Source of the DNA: a virus
Strand: one strand, 5' to 3'
IMG/VR virus record: IMGVR_UViG_3300037313_000197
Location: 32,001 to 96,000 of that record
DNA: 64,000 nt
The translations under genes were made by a program, and so were the position numbers. The notes beneath the pieces are model-generated. The model searched no databases. It had not been told where the DNA came from and saw nothing but the letters and a program-made list of their open reading frames with translations. Of this stretch, positions 28,556-56,172 are shown piece after piece; position 1 is the first letter of the stretch, and the number at the start of each line of letters is the position of its first letter.

Positions 28556-29316
28556 CGAATACGTTCCTTCATTGTAGGCTGGAAGTTGATTCCCATGTTG
28601 AAGATGATGGGAAGCATATCAAACATTTGCAAGAAGTCAATAGTCTTCGACGGGTCGACATTGAACATCTTTGTCAGTTCCTCACGCACGCGCTCTGCCG
28701 ACACACCGGCCACCTTGTAGGTCATGCCGACCATGGCATTACCAGTTTCCGTCTCAATATCGAAACCTTTGGTAACAGCAAAACGCATGGCTCGGAGGAT
28801 ACGCAGAGCATCCTCTTCAAAGCGCTCACGAGGGTCACCAACGGCACGAATAATTCGGTCCTTGATATCCTGCACACCATTGAAAGGATCGATCAGGTTG
28901 CCGTACTTGTCCTTTGCAATAGCATTCATACAAAAGTCTCTGCGGGCAAGATCATCCATCAGCGTACCCGGCTCAACATGGTCAGGACGACGGCCATCTG
29001 TGTAGTCGCTTTCCTTACGAGCAAGCACAAAGTCAGCAGTGAGATTCTTCGTAAGAGGACTAGCGGTTCCGCCAATAATAGCGCTCTGTGTCTGTGGAAA
29101 TTGAGCACGAACAGTCAGGAACTCGGGAGTTTCCAAGAAAACCTTGAAACCCTGACCTTCTAGGTATAAAACCATGTATTCAAACGGAGTAAACTGATTG
29201 TGCGCGGTGTAGGCATCGATATCTGCCTGCTCTAGAACGCAAGTAAAATCAACGTCCTTTGACCTGACACCGAGCAGTTCATCGCGAACCGCACCGCCTA
29301 CCATGTAGAATTCCAT
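28552..29316 (-). CDS. cca: Short class II tRNA nucleotidyltransferase (CCA-adding enzyme)
   Basis: VGGAVRD..G...DVD, RRDF..NAIA, DPFNG, EDALR templating motif; only 254 aa. Confidence 0.92.
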   Translation of the reverse strand: MEFYMVGGAVRDELLGVRSKDVDFTCVLEQADIDAYTAHNQFTPFEYMVLYLEGQGFKVFLETPEFLTVRAQFPQTQSAIIGGTASPLTKNLTADFVLARKESDYTDGRRPDHVEPGTLMDDLARRDFCMNAIAKDKYGNLIDPFNGVQDIKDRIIRAVGDPRERFEEDALRILRAMRFAVTKGFDIETETGNAMVGMTYKVAGVSAERVREELTKMFNVDPSKTIDFLQMFDMLPIIFNMGINFQPTMKERIR

Positions 29317-34567: not shown

Positions 34568-34641
34568 TGGGGAGCCTAGACGTTACTGCCACGTCTTCTT
34601 CAAGGCCACAACTTGACGCATCACTTTAATGCTTTAGGCTC
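34568..34641 (-). tRNA. tRNA-His(GTG), C73+CCA, no encoded G-1, atypical T-loop GGCAGTA
   Basis: Perfect cloverleaf GAGCCTA/GCAT/TCAAG-TTGTGGC-CTTGA/GACGT. Confidence 0.85.
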
Positions 34642-50909: not shown

Positions 50910-51653
50910 TTAGTTTAACACATCAGACTCTAGAAGGTCAAGCATTCCATTGTCTGTTTCCATCTTCCACACCCGGCGCTTTGCATTGGTGCTTTCAATA
51001 CGGTTAGTAGCCCTATTGTAGTACTCAAATGGAAGGTCACGTGCCTCGCTGTAGAAGTATCGGCCATTGAAGAACGGGTCAGGAATCGGAAGAACATCAG
51101 GGTTCTTCTCTCGGATCATGTCGAGCATATCAGCCTTGTTCTTGCCTTGCAACTCCTTGTGACTGAACATCGACTGAGCCTGCATGGAAATAGCATTCCT
51201 ATTTGCATCGGCCTTGCGCCAGAGGAAGTAGTCGAGCACGTCCTCACGCTTCGTCAGACGGATCACACGAGCGTCGAAAACGGCTGGCTTTTTACCGGCG
51301 TGCGCGTGGTGTGCGTTGAAAAATCCGGTAAAGGTAGAGGCGCTTACAGACACGATCTTTTCCACCTTGCCACCAAACCATCCCTGCTCATGCTCACGCT
51401 CATCAATGAGAAGCGAAATCTCATCAGACTGAGTGTAGGCAAACTTAACAGGAATATCAGAGTTGCGGCAAGTGTCATAAACAGCATTGTTCATAGCGCT
51501 GTGAAGCATACCATCAAAAGGCTTAACTAGGCCCTTGGTGTAGGTGTGGAAAGCCTTACCGTCAAGTCGGACGATCAGCCAACCGTCAGGCAGGATGCTG
51601 GAAGAATGCATCCTCTCAATAGCCTTGAACTTATCTCCAAGTTCAGTGTGCAT
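50910..51653 (-). CDS. thg1: tRNA(His) guanylyltransferase, Thg1-like
   Basis: VRLDGKAFH, KPFD, TQSDEISL, FDARV, YFLWR..DA.RN. Confidence 0.93.
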   Translation of the reverse strand: MHTELGDKFKAIERMHSSSILPDGWLIVRLDGKAFHTYTKGLVKPFDGMLHSAMNNAVYDTCRNSDIPVKFAYTQSDEISLLIDEREHEQGWFGGKVEKIVSVSASTFTGFFNAHHAHAGKKPAVFDARVIRLTKREDVLDYFLWRKADANRNAISMQAQSMFSHKELQGKNKADMLDMIREKNPDVLPIPDPFFNGRYFYSEARDLPFEYYNRATNRIESTNAKRRVWKMETDNGMLDLLESDVLN

Positions 51654-53113: not shown

Positions 53114-53482
53114 TCAACTCTTACAAGGATTTGCCTTGACGTACCCGATGAACGTTCCCTTATCAGTAATTACATCAAAGAGCACCTGAGTGTTAGCGTT
53201 CTGGATAGTTCCTACCGTAATAGTATTGTTAGATGGATCGACTACATTTGGTGTCCAGTCTGTTGCTGGGAATCCATTGATATTTACACCAAGTACATTG
53301 TGCGTACCGGTCAGAGTCAGATAAAGGCGATAGTCGGCAGCCTGACGCTGAGCAGGCAACTTACATGACTTATCGGTATCCAGACCTTCTGTTACAGAAG
53401 CGGCAACAGCAGGAGCGGCGGTAGCAATCAAAACTGCTGGCACTGTCCATGCAGCACCCTTTACTACTGTTCTACGCTCCAT
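53114..53482 (-). CDS. Secreted protein with a twin-arginine-type signal
   Basis: MERRTVVKGAAWTVPAVLIATAAPAVAAS. Confidence 0.75.
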   Translation of the reverse strand: MERRTVVKGAAWTVPAVLIATAAPAVAASVTEGLDTDKSCKLPAQRQAADYRLYLTLTGTHNVLGVNINGFPATDWTPNVVDPSNNTITVGTIQNANTQVLFDVITDKGTFIGYVKANPCKS

Positions 53483-53509
53483 GATTTATCCTTTGGTTGT
53501 TTGGTTAAG

Positions 53510-53585
53510 TGGAGGTCTCGGGAGGGTTTGAACCTCCGTCCCCACGCCTTCCCGGCATGGTATTTTCCCTTAATACTACAAGACC
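53510..53585 (-). tRNA. Atypical tRNA with CCA and a 5-nt anticodon loop (GGGAA); identity unclear
   Basis: Intact acceptor, D and T arms (TTCAAAC), U73-CCA; no U33. Confidence 0.65.
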
Positions 53586-53586
53586 A

Positions 53587-53662
53587 TGGTGCGCCGGGGA
53601 AGACTTGAACTTCCATTCTCTCCTAGTAAAAGGAGCGGTGTTAGACTTACACCCACCGGCAC
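53587..53662 (-). tRNA. tRNA-Val(TAC)-like with CCA and a 6-nt anticodon loop
   Basis: CTCCT-TTTACT-AGGAG; A73-CCA; TTCAAGT. Confidence 0.7.
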
Positions 53663-53753
53663 TTATCGTAATCCTACACGATACCGTTCCACATCTCAGC
53701 ATTACCTGTCATGGCCGTATCTGCCTTATCATCGCCCACCCTCGGATTACAAG

Positions 53754-53828
53754 TGGTGCGGAATGCTACGCCTCGCAACGTAACGCTAACGGTCCCGGTG
53801 ACCGCCGTGCTCACTACACTAATTCCAC
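53754..53828 (-). ncRNA. tRNA-like cloverleaf with CCA and non-canonical loops
   Basis: GTGGAAT/ATTCCGC-A-CCA; GCGGT-CACCGGG-ACCGT; 6-bp T-stem with 8-nt loop TTGCGAGG. Confidence 0.6.
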
Positions 53829-53829
53829 G

Positions 53830-53903
53830 CTCCCCCGGCAGGATTCGAACCTGCAACCCTCTGATTAACAGTCAGATGCAACTACCAATTGTGCTACGGG
53901 GGA
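53830..53903 (-). tRNA. tRNA-Asn(GTT)
   Basis: TCTGA-CTGTTAA-TCAGA, TTCGAAT, G73. Confidence 0.95.
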
Positions 53904-54231
53904 ATATAAGGGACTGGTTAACACGGCCATTTATCCCTTGTTTAAAGTGCGTTCCGAATTTACACTTAGTTCTCTTCGTTTCGTATGTTACCGGCAATCC
54001 ATTATCCGGCGTTTATTTGTGTCTTATAAGCATACAGACTGTGACAGCGCTTGTCAAGTCTGCTTGTTTGGGCGAAGTCTTTCTTCAATGTTATCGTTCA
54101 TGATCTTCTCAGATGCTTCGTCATGACCTTCGCCACGTAATTCTCTTAATGCCCATTCAAGCGATAGTTCTCGTCCTCTTAGCATACCAATGTACCAAGA
54201 GTCCTCATCAACTACCCGGCGATTCGTATTA

Positions 54232-54696: not shown

Positions 54697-54823
54697 TGTT
54701 CACCTTTCGTTAATAACCAACTGGTCAGCCACTCGCATCCCACCCGTTTGTTCCAGTTAGGCATTCTTGTTGCCATACTTGTGCTGGTCACCGGCCTAAG
54801 CCTTGTCCGCTGTGTTAGTTAAG

Positions 54824-55126
54824 TGGAGCCGGGAGGATTTGAACCTCCGTCTTACTACCGTCCGCATAGTTCCGTCTTACAGTCATAGTGCTTTAAGATA
54901 TCACCCATCTGCGCCAGCGAACTGGACCACCTTCAACTTTGGCAGAGTTGACAACTGTACTACTGAAAACTCTAACTTGGTTAATAAGGTGTTAGAGAAC
55001 CCCATCCTGAACTAAATCAGGCTGCTAGAGCGTAGTCTGCATTTATTGTTTTTGGACGTTTTAGTGATCCGTCCAATCACGACTGAGAACCATGTTTAGT
55101 TGTAGTAATCGAAACCTGTCGGCCCC
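54824..55126 (-). ncRNA. ssrA: tmRNA, tag (A)ADYALAA
   Basis: 5' GGGGCCGACAGGTTTCGA; 3' GGAGGTTCAAATCCTCCCGGCTCCA; G3-U70; resume context ATAAAT-GCA; tag ORF 55040-55017. Confidence 0.95.
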
Positions 55127-55792: not shown

Positions 55793-55871
55793 CCCGCGAT
55801 GAGGGATTCGAACCAAACACATCACCGGTGGCTGCGCAACCCCGGCATTTTACCAATTAAACTAATCGCGG
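55793..55871 (-). ncRNA. tRNA-like RNA with an extended anticodon hairpin and a broken T-stem
   Basis: CCGCGAT/ATCGCGG acceptor, canonical D-loop and TTCGAAT; 23-nt anticodon hairpin. Confidence 0.6.
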
Positions 55872-55874
55872 AAG

Positions 55875-55967
55875 CGGATACGGTCTGCCCCTCATGACTC
55901 AGACATTACCATTAACTAGTATTACAGGTAGTTTTATTTTCTTGCGGAATTCTTAAACTACGTATCC
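55875..55967 (-). ncRNA. tRNA-like RNA closed by a 7-bp acceptor-type stem
   Basis: GGATACG/CGTATCC; arms TAGTTT/AAACTA and GTCTG/CAGAC stacked on the acceptor. Confidence 0.5.
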
Positions 55968-56003
55968 TAATGAAATCCACACTTGCAAATGCTTCATTCA
56001 CTG

Positions 56004-56077
56004 TGTCTCTAGTAGGATTCGAACCTACAAGTCTTTGGTTTAGGAAACCACTGCATTATCCGTTATGCTATAGAGAC
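56004..56077 (-). tRNA. tRNA-Arg(CCT)
   Basis: TGGT-TTCCTAA-ACCA, TTCGAAT. Confidence 0.92.
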
Positions 56078-56170
56078 TGGTGGGGTCGGAACATTGCGCA
56101 ATTCCTGTCACCAAAAGCAGTATCTAGGCTTAATGTACACTTGGCTTCGACTTACTTTCGACTCAACCCC
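56078..56170 (-). ncRNA. tRNA-like RNA with CCA and an elongated anticodon-position arm
   Basis: GGGGTTG/CGACCCC-A-CCA; D-like TCGA/TCGA. Confidence 0.6.
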
Positions 56171-56172
56171 CG

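Follow-up and report, generated by a model that had tools for sequence, protein, structure and literature searches.

What role might be played by a phage RNA that has the shape of a tRNA and an anticodon arm that cannot read a codon? This question is raised by a locus within a 64,000-nucleotide stretch of viral DNA (hereafter the window), comprising bases 32001-96000 of a 126,890-bp IMG/VR virus record (IMGVR_UViG_3300037313_000197) that originates from soil and carries direct terminal repeats. Three elements at this locus, designated A, B, and C, are, as judged from sequence and predicted fold, genuine tRNA-shaped RNA genes that are unable to decode. They have probably been maintained as non-decoding tRNA mimics, and the explanation favored overall, albeit tentatively, is that these mimics are processed and act by way of the acceptor end.

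An initial annotation had reported three tRNA-like bodies with non-decoding anticodon loops in this region, and all three were found at the positions it gave, on the minus strand. They form part of an unbroken array (53903-53510), which reads, in the direction of transcription, tRNA-Asn, C, a spacer RNA designated X, B, a single U, and A:

53829..53903, minus strand: canonical tRNA-Asn(GUU) gene without an encoded CCA, ending G73-C (ARAGORN; Rfam, 65.1 bits)
53754..53828, minus strand: element C, a 75-nt four-way-junction RNA with acceptor stem GUGGAAU/AUUCCGC and A73-CCA (fold only)
53663..53753, minus strand: element X, a 91-nt spacer RNA closed by UUGUAAUCC/GGAUUACGA and not tRNA-like (fold)
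53587..53662, minus strand: element B, a 76-nt cloverleaf with acceptor stem GUGCCGG/CCGGCGC and A73-CCA (ARAGORN; Rfam, 39.5 bits; fold)
53510..53585, minus strand: element A, a 76-nt cloverleaf ending U73-CCA (called 'tRNA-Ser(gga)' by ARAGORN; Rfam tRNA model, 36.2 bits; fold)

Each of A, B, and C combines a perfect 7-bp acceptor stem with an encoded NCCA end. In element A, the anticodon loop CGGGAAG has G at position 33 and can pair C32 with G38, such that the minimum-energy fold contains a 7-bp anticodon stem capped by the pentaloop GGGAA; its elbow features, a T loop of UUCAAAC and a D-loop GG, are canonical. Element B folds into a clean cloverleaf (z = -3.6) with a canonical T loop and a D loop lacking GG, and ARAGORN assigns it a two-base anticodon within the 6-nt loop UUUACU. 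Both A and B score above the cut-off of the Rfam tRNA model (RF00005, 29 bits), in alignments that skip the anticodon loop of each. Element C has a 4-bp D stem and a 7-bp 'anticodon' stem; its loop, CACCGGG, has A at position 33 and becomes the pentaloop ACCGG when C32 and G38 pair. The T arm of C is a non-canonical 8-bp hairpin with a GCGA cap, neither the D-loop GG nor the T-loop consensus is present, and C was called a tRNA neither by ARAGORN nor by Rfam (481 bases, E<=10). The paired tRNA bodies described in the initial annotation are thus borne out as cloverleaves for A and B and in outline only for C, in which the pairs of the 6-bp T stem noted previously are present and extend into the longer hairpin.

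A 7-nt anticodon loop with U33 and unpaired positions 32 and 38 was found in none of the three elements, and on this basis A, B, and C fall outside the canonical tRNA family in a functional sense. Specifically, the anticodon arms are sealed or shortened by C32-G38 pairs, a purine at position 33, or loops of 5-6 nt, features that would preclude decoding. Also consistent with the initial annotation is the finding that the elements encode CCA more often than the tRNAs that surround them (3/3, as opposed to 6/33 other tRNAs called by ARAGORN; Fisher p = 0.012), an enrichment that is real yet not exclusive to A, B, and C. When the whole genome was scanned for 7-bp closures preceding NCCA, approximately one match per kb per strand was returned, which is too noisy for statistics. 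An assembly slip is unlikely, since a contig of the same stretch in a separate Logan assembly of run X1 (126,785 nt, 107x) is identical over 53300-54100; among the runs listed, one public DNA run and no RNA run contain the stretch, and as run X1 may be the source of the window itself, this check is not an independent one.

The evidence that bears most directly on maintenance comes from comparison with a relative. Searches based on the Thg1-like protein encoded downstream of the array revealed a clade at 54-79% identity (P0002 at 79%, P0003-P0012 at 54-60%). A single relative with DNA was recovered: IMG/VR record G001, of 131,350 bp, whose Thg1-like protein is 56% identical. G001 was the only record above 50% identity in Thg1 alignment scans of viral contigs and the only one recovered with two clade-specific small proteins, and single-protein scans of viral contigs yielded no relative. 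Searching viral contigs with the pattern of the Asn/C junction through to CCA returned G001 and 19 chance matches, and the acceptor pattern of B yielded chance matches alone, located in GC-rich coding DNA and including no cloverleaf. A metagenome scan with the signal-peptide pattern of the open reading frame (ORF) that follows A recovered 48 unrelated actinobacterial signals of the twin-arginine translocation (TAT) type and two copies of the G001 lineage, one of which (L094) is 99.3% identical to G001 and shows no differences across 385 nt around the elements. Scans of genome contigs found nothing. Among GenBank phages, neither blastn nor tblastn recovered a relative of the three elements or of the neighboring ORF; when 53400-54000 was compared by blastn with 50,697 phage records, the tRNA-Asn part alone was matched. 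In Streptomyces phage Genie2, genes for tRNA-Asn and tRNA-Arg(CCU) are present, though in a non-syntenic region without annotated elements of this kind.

The two phages share a gene order, namely tRNA-Arg(CCU), tmRNA, promoter-like site, tRNA-Asn, the elements, the ORF with the signal MERRTVVKGAAW, the Thg1-like gene, and Thr, Ile, and Gln, with the Thg1-like gene directly following the ORF homolog in G001. Within the array, the Asn/C, C/X, and X/B junctions are conserved. The G+1 of C lies immediately 3' of the G73-C of tRNA-Asn, and this junction, GGAGC/GUGGA, is the same in G001. Element X opens with CUUG directly after the CCA of C, and its G001 counterpart, X' (L003:9308-9377), a 70-nt RNA closed by UGGUAAC/GUUACCA, keeps the CUUG start although its interior is not alignable with that of X. 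The counterpart of C in G001, C', is a 37-nt hairpin of 12 pairs (z = -5.6) that starts with GUGGA and ends with UCCGC-ACCA; the first five acceptor pairs, the ACCA, and the CUUG that follows are identical in C and C', and the differences at pairs 6 and 7 are compensatory.

The counterpart of B, designated B', is a full cloverleaf, again with a non-decoding loop. As an alignment of B and B' by MAFFT disagreed with the structure, pairs were counted by explicit position: among 21 cloverleaf pairs, none is broken, eight are unchanged, three differ on one side, and ten are compensatory. Identical pairs are concentrated in the acceptor stem (6/7, as opposed to 2/14 in the D, anticodon, and T stems; p = 0.003), and U8-G9 and A73 are also unchanged. 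B, C, B', and C' all start with GUG and end with CGC-A, with a U2.G71 wobble, such that G1-C72, U2.G71, G3-C70, and A73 are common to B and C in both phages; none of the canonical tRNAs of the window phage starts in this manner. In contrast, the anticodon loop is conserved neither in length nor in sequence (UUUACU in B, CAUUUGG in B'), whereas syntenic pairs of canonical tRNAs keep their anticodon in all 19 cases compared. Finally, three of four mimics (A, C, and B') combine C32-G38 pairing with a purine in place of U33, and neither state occurs among the 63 canonical tRNAs that the two phages encode.

As judged from this one relative, the comparison shows that B and C are kept for their shape and acceptor end. 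The initial annotation, which considered the elements maintained rather than decayed, had proposed conservation and covariation as a check and canonical loops in reads or close relatives as grounds for abandoning the idea; the compensatory pairs of B support it in G001, and canonical loops were seen neither in B' nor in the Logan assembly. The claim of maintenance holds for B, all 21 pairs of which are retained in B', and for C, the acceptor ends of both being nearly unchanged, and does not extend to A, of which G001 has no counterpart. The encoded CCA, which had been offered in support of maintenance, is a weaker argument than stated, given that B' ends in ACAA and that six ordinary tRNAs of the window phage also encode CCA.

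How might such RNAs be released? The array belongs to a unit that runs from a promoter-like site through tRNA-Asn, C, X, B, and A to a leader and mRNAs, with the Thg1-like gene last, and the features that flank the array are as follows:

54029..54057, minus strand: promoter-like site, TTGACA-17 nt-TATGCT, approximately 120 nt upstream of tRNA-Asn (consensus match only)
53114..53509, minus strand: CA-rich leader (UUAACCAA.CAACCAAAGG) and a 122-aa ORF (53114-53482) with the TAT-type signal MERRTVVKGAAW
50910-51653, minus strand: Thg1-like tRNA-His guanylyltransferase gene, downstream of the array and in the same orientation (PHROG 4717, E = 5e-63; PF04446)

The promoter-like site is the probable start of the transcription unit, and a counterpart that likewise rests on a consensus match (TTGACA-17-TACAAT) lies upstream of tRNA-Asn in G001. 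A terminator-like site was sought between the array and the ORF, and none was found. Element A begins one nucleotide past the CCA of B and ends 27 nt ahead of the start codon of the ORF, which is the first mRNA of the unit and is preceded by a leader that is conserved in G001; there, B' runs into the CA-rich leader that follows A in the window phage, leaving 32 nt to the start codon. Neither Pfam nor PHROG families matched the 122-aa ORF, and no Pfam family matched ORFs overlapping A, B, or C on either strand.

Bacterial RNase P recognizes the stack of acceptor and T stems, takes acceptor/T minihelices as substrates, and makes use of the RCCA end; a cut at each G+1 of the array may therefore be predicted. 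The dependence of the RNase P RNA on RCCA has been documented (PMC12710915). Such cuts would free the elements, would leave tRNA-Asn ending in G73-C74 for CCA completion, and would separate the tRNA part of the transcript from the mRNA. Processing of the elements by RNase P is considered likely, if somewhat less so than their maintenance as mimics.

It is possible, although doubtful, that this processing is all there is to explain, the elements being cis-acting modules for RNase P (and RNase Z or an exonuclease) that set the 3' terminus of tRNA-Asn along with the 5' terminus of the downstream mRNA and have no role of their own once released. Such a function would account for the gapless array, in which G+1 directly follows the G73-C of tRNA-Asn, for the reduction of C' to a 12-pair hairpin with ACCA, which is the minimal type of RNase P substrate, for the short distance between the last element and the start codon in both phages, ahead of a conserved leader, and for the presence of further stem-closed RNAs between the tRNAs of this genome. 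RNase P, however, needs neither D nor anticodon arms, yet B keeps them through seven compensatory changes; the fixed acceptor sequence with U2.G71, common to B and C in both phages, exceeds what pairing demands; and three to four consecutive modules exceed what is needed for one cut. Since neither the arms retained by B nor the constancy of the acceptor sequence is needed for processing, an additional function, exerted by the released RNAs through the acceptor end, is favored.

A second alternative, which is judged unlikely, holds that the elements, and A above all, are tRNA genes that are decaying or were inactivated recently, left behind as neutral remnants by a fast turnover of tRNAs. Such turnover is apparent in the two phages, whose syntenic tRNA pairs range from 63 to 100% in identity (Gly-GCC 100%, Ser-UGA 99%) and whose His, Asp, and Trp calls differ, a spread suggestive of tRNA genes being exchanged in mosaic fashion. 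A, which G001 lacks, departs from a working tRNA in its anticodon loop only. Several additional findings weigh against maintenance for tRNA mimicry. The fold z-scores of A and C are weak (approximately -1.9 and -2.0), and the covariation described above is based on two sequences per element, there being one relative with DNA. B' has no encoded CCA and no D-loop GG; as its T loop, UGUAAGU, is non-canonical and the Rfam tRNA model does not match it even at E<=5, the tRNA elbow may not be conserved. Ordinary tRNA pairs of the two phages also have more identical pairs in the acceptor stem than elsewhere (61% vs. 49%), and the pattern seen in B, a conserved acceptor with a fast-changing body, lies within the range of ordinary tRNAs such as Arg(CCU) and Cys. 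Lastly, odd anticodon loops make up 5/78 ARAGORN calls (approximately 6%) in other Thg1-bearing phage loci, a frequency that fits common decay as well as common mimicry.

Against decay stand the absence of broken pairs from every stem of A, B, C, and B', the retention of all 21 pairs between B and B' although 13 have changed, the recurrence of C32-G38 pairing with a purine at position 33, and the lack, among the canonical tRNAs encoded by the window phage, of any that A, B, or C closely copies (best identity, 0.62-0.64). Neutral decay is insufficient because stems remain intact after much change and the same sealing of the loop occurs three times.

If A, B, and C are indeed maintained as mimics, the freed CCA-ended RNAs would act through the acceptor end and their tRNA shape, and their most likely role would be to compete, as substrates or decoys, for proteins whose targets are tRNA acceptor ends. 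A decoy role is put forward as a tentative possibility. Candidate targets include host defenses that modify or cut the CCA end as well as the phage's own end-repair enzymes. Defense effectors known to act on the acceptor or CCA end include Cas12a3, whose substrates extend to a simple hairpin bearing CCA at its 3' end (PMC12851939), MenT in actinobacteria (PMC10435456, PMC11541572), and the toxSAS FaRel2 (10.1101/2024.07.05.602228). The more specific proposal, that B, C, and perhaps A sequester a host effector that probes the acceptor stem and alters or cleaves CCA, is improbable in so narrow a form; the effectors concerned might be MenT/AbiEii-type nucleotidyltransferases, toxSAS pyrophosphokinases, or Cas12a3-type tail nucleases, and the sealed anticodon arms would keep the decoys off the ribosome and away from anticodon nucleases. 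An acceptor-end decoy would fit the investment of this phage in tRNA-end repair, which comprises, in addition to the Thg1-like gene, the following:

28846-29310, minus strand: PolyA_pol/CCA-adding-type gene
54823-55126, minus strand: tmRNA
56647-56988: Pth2
57517-58407: Pnkp
58886-60151: Rnl1-like ligase

Two HNH endonuclease ORFs (58404-58883 and 59997-60455) lie amid these genes. As for the targets suggested in the initial annotation, decoys of acceptor-end enzymes appear to fit better than decoys of anticodon nucleases, which fit poorly because the loops are unlike any target anticodon loop, and both uncharged-tRNA sensors and frameshift decoding are argued against since each needs contact between codon and anticodon.

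The aminoacyl donors for non-ribosomal use that were also suggested there would be RNAs charged through the acceptor end by a synthetase that ignores the anticodon, and barred from the ribosome by the sealed loop. This is highly unlikely. The set G1-C72/U2.G71/G3-C70/A73 conserved in B and C of both phages does resemble an identity set, and B, B', and C lack the D-loop GG, as B' and C lack the T-loop consensus; on the other side, the elements have no G3.U70, long variable arm, or G-1 and hence no identity set of the kinds known to act independently of the anticodon, no FemAB-type transferase was found in the phage, and the adjacent ORFs are without any family match. That the elements are working decoders with unusual loops, for example with the 6-nt loop of B reading doublets or shifting the frame, or as tRNAs resistant to anticodon nucleases, is barely credible despite the UAC that B shares with the genuine tRNA-Val loop UUUACAC and the existence of altered-loop phage tRNAs that still decode and escape host nucleases (PMC10264068, PMC11464382), since loop length and sequence are unconserved between B and B', A, C, and B' have no U33 and can pair positions 32 and 38, a canonical tRNA-Val(UAC) is already present in the phage, and the body of A (anticodon GGA) lacks the long arm required by bacterial tRNA-Ser.

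Among known RNAs, the nearest in kind, by analogy, are the stable RNAs of the T4 and T5 tRNA clusters. The species 1 and 2 RNAs of T4 (RNAC and RNAD) and the stable RNAs of the T5 tRNA region are small non-decoding RNAs with tRNA-like ends, and they too reside inside a phage tRNA cluster and are co-transcribed with tRNAs; A, B, and C likewise lie within, and are co-oriented with, the tRNA cluster of their phage and abut its tRNAs. The two groups differ in that A and B are full cloverleaves above the Rfam tRNA threshold, and, to our knowledge, neither sealed pentaloop anticodon arms nor a shared GUG...CGC-A end are known from the T4 or T5 RNAs. The 12-pair hairpin and ACCA of C', as well as the 7-bp acceptor stems and RCCA- or NCCA-type ends of the elements, resemble the minihelix substrates of RNase P and CCA-adding enzymes; those, however, are laboratory models, whereas the elements are natural genes and B retains its D and anticodon arms.

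Other tRNA-shaped RNAs that do not decode include YrlA/Y RNA (RF02553) and mascRNA (RF01684), the latter being freed by RNase P and RNase Z and then receiving CCA. YrlA differs in having no free acceptor or CCA end, the most conserved part of the present elements, which in turn have no Ro60-binding stem. RF02553 gave no match (E<=1 over 30000-64000; E<=10 over 53480-53960), nor did any Rfam family beyond that of tRNA, and the mascRNA model scored at chance level (13.2 bits). The staphylococcal tRNA-Gly of cell-wall synthesis works off the ribosome and resembles B' and C in having neither the GG of the D loop nor the consensus T loop; in contrast to these, it has an intact UCC anticodon for GlyRS, and no Fem-type transferase that might use such a carrier was found in this phage. 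The enlarged loop of 8-9 nt that is the hallmark of frameshift-suppressor or quadruplet tRNAs was found in none of the elements, whose loops span 5-7 nt. Phage tRNAs with changes in the anticodon loop evade host tRNA nucleases (PMC10264068), as exemplified by the T5 tRNA-Lys that counters PARIS (PMC11464382) and by retron evasion (PMC11555353). In common with these, the elements are phage-encoded, located in tRNA clusters beside RNA-repair genes, and have anticodon loops unlike those of host tRNAs; the evading tRNAs, however, possess a 7-nt loop with a readable anticodon and rescue translation, whereas the loops described here have 5-6 nt or lack U33 and are unconserved between the two phages.

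Phage tRNA clusters are now viewed as part of an arms race over host immunity that targets tRNA. We know of no explanation that has been given for the non-decoding tRNA look-alikes in such clusters since the T4 and T5 RNAs were described. Comparison with G001 points to the acceptor end, and not the anticodon, as the conserved part, with the bare ACCA hairpin of C' as the extreme case. Should this be borne out in more relatives, it would suggest RNA mimics aimed at the enzymes of the tRNA 3' end, among which a class of defense effectors has recently been described, and were the decoy reading true, the mimics would represent a new kind of RNA-based counter-defense that complements the protein toolkit for tRNA-end repair. 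If they are processing signals only, they would provide an example of the punctuation of a phage operon in which tRNAs and mRNAs are combined. On either view, neither the label tRNA-Ser(GGA) for A nor that of an undetermined tRNA type for B should appear in the output of annotation pipelines.

With regard to the genomic setting, a protein adjoining the portal gene matches Streptomyces BE-cluster phages alone, at approximately 25% identity, and by this similarity the phage is a distant relative of that cluster. ARAGORN found 35 tRNAs and a tmRNA across the genome; for published BE phages, the corresponding figures are 43-48 tRNAs and a tmRNA, in genomes of approximately 130 kb that have long terminal repeats (PMC5764925). 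The host is likely an actinobacterium, given the BE-cluster match and the actinobacterial type of the TAT signal in the ORF after A. This signal, MERRTVVKGAAW, is odd for a phage protein and hints at the host, being present as well in numerous unrelated genes of actinobacteria in metagenomes.

The tRNA complement of the two phages shows further differences. tRNA-Asp was not found in the window phage by ARAGORN, nor was tRNA-Trp in G001, and the tRNA-Asn(GUU) of G001 (L003:9182-9270) is an 89-nt RNA whose D stem is longer and which has an additional arm; it is 63% identical to the 75-nt tRNA-Asn of the window. The tmRNA tag peptides also differ strongly, that of the window phage being ADYALAA and that of G001 having 29 residues (L003:8028-8387). 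A tRNA-His(GUG)-like gene missed by ARAGORN is located at 34568-34641 on the minus strand and has a perfect acceptor stem, the canonical loop UUGUGGC, and C73-CCA; A, B, and C were accordingly rejected as candidates for the missing tRNA-His. This gene has an odd T loop, GGCAGUA, and U instead of G at position -1, as does the tRNA-His of G001, and the Thg1-like enzyme of both phages could add the missing G-1.

Four further tRNA-like elements with closed acceptor stems and rebuilt central arms surround tRNA-Arg(CCU) on the minus strand (55793-56252). The Rfam tRNA model gives one of them (55793-55871), which ARAGORN does not call, a score of 36.3 bits, and another (56078-56170) has an ACCA end. 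The loops of A and C have the hexamer CCGGGA in common (53540-53556 and 53786-53802), and AUGCCGGG occurs both in A and in the element at 55793-55871 (55830-55850, minus strand); these common sequences could reflect either chance or a common protein-binding motif.

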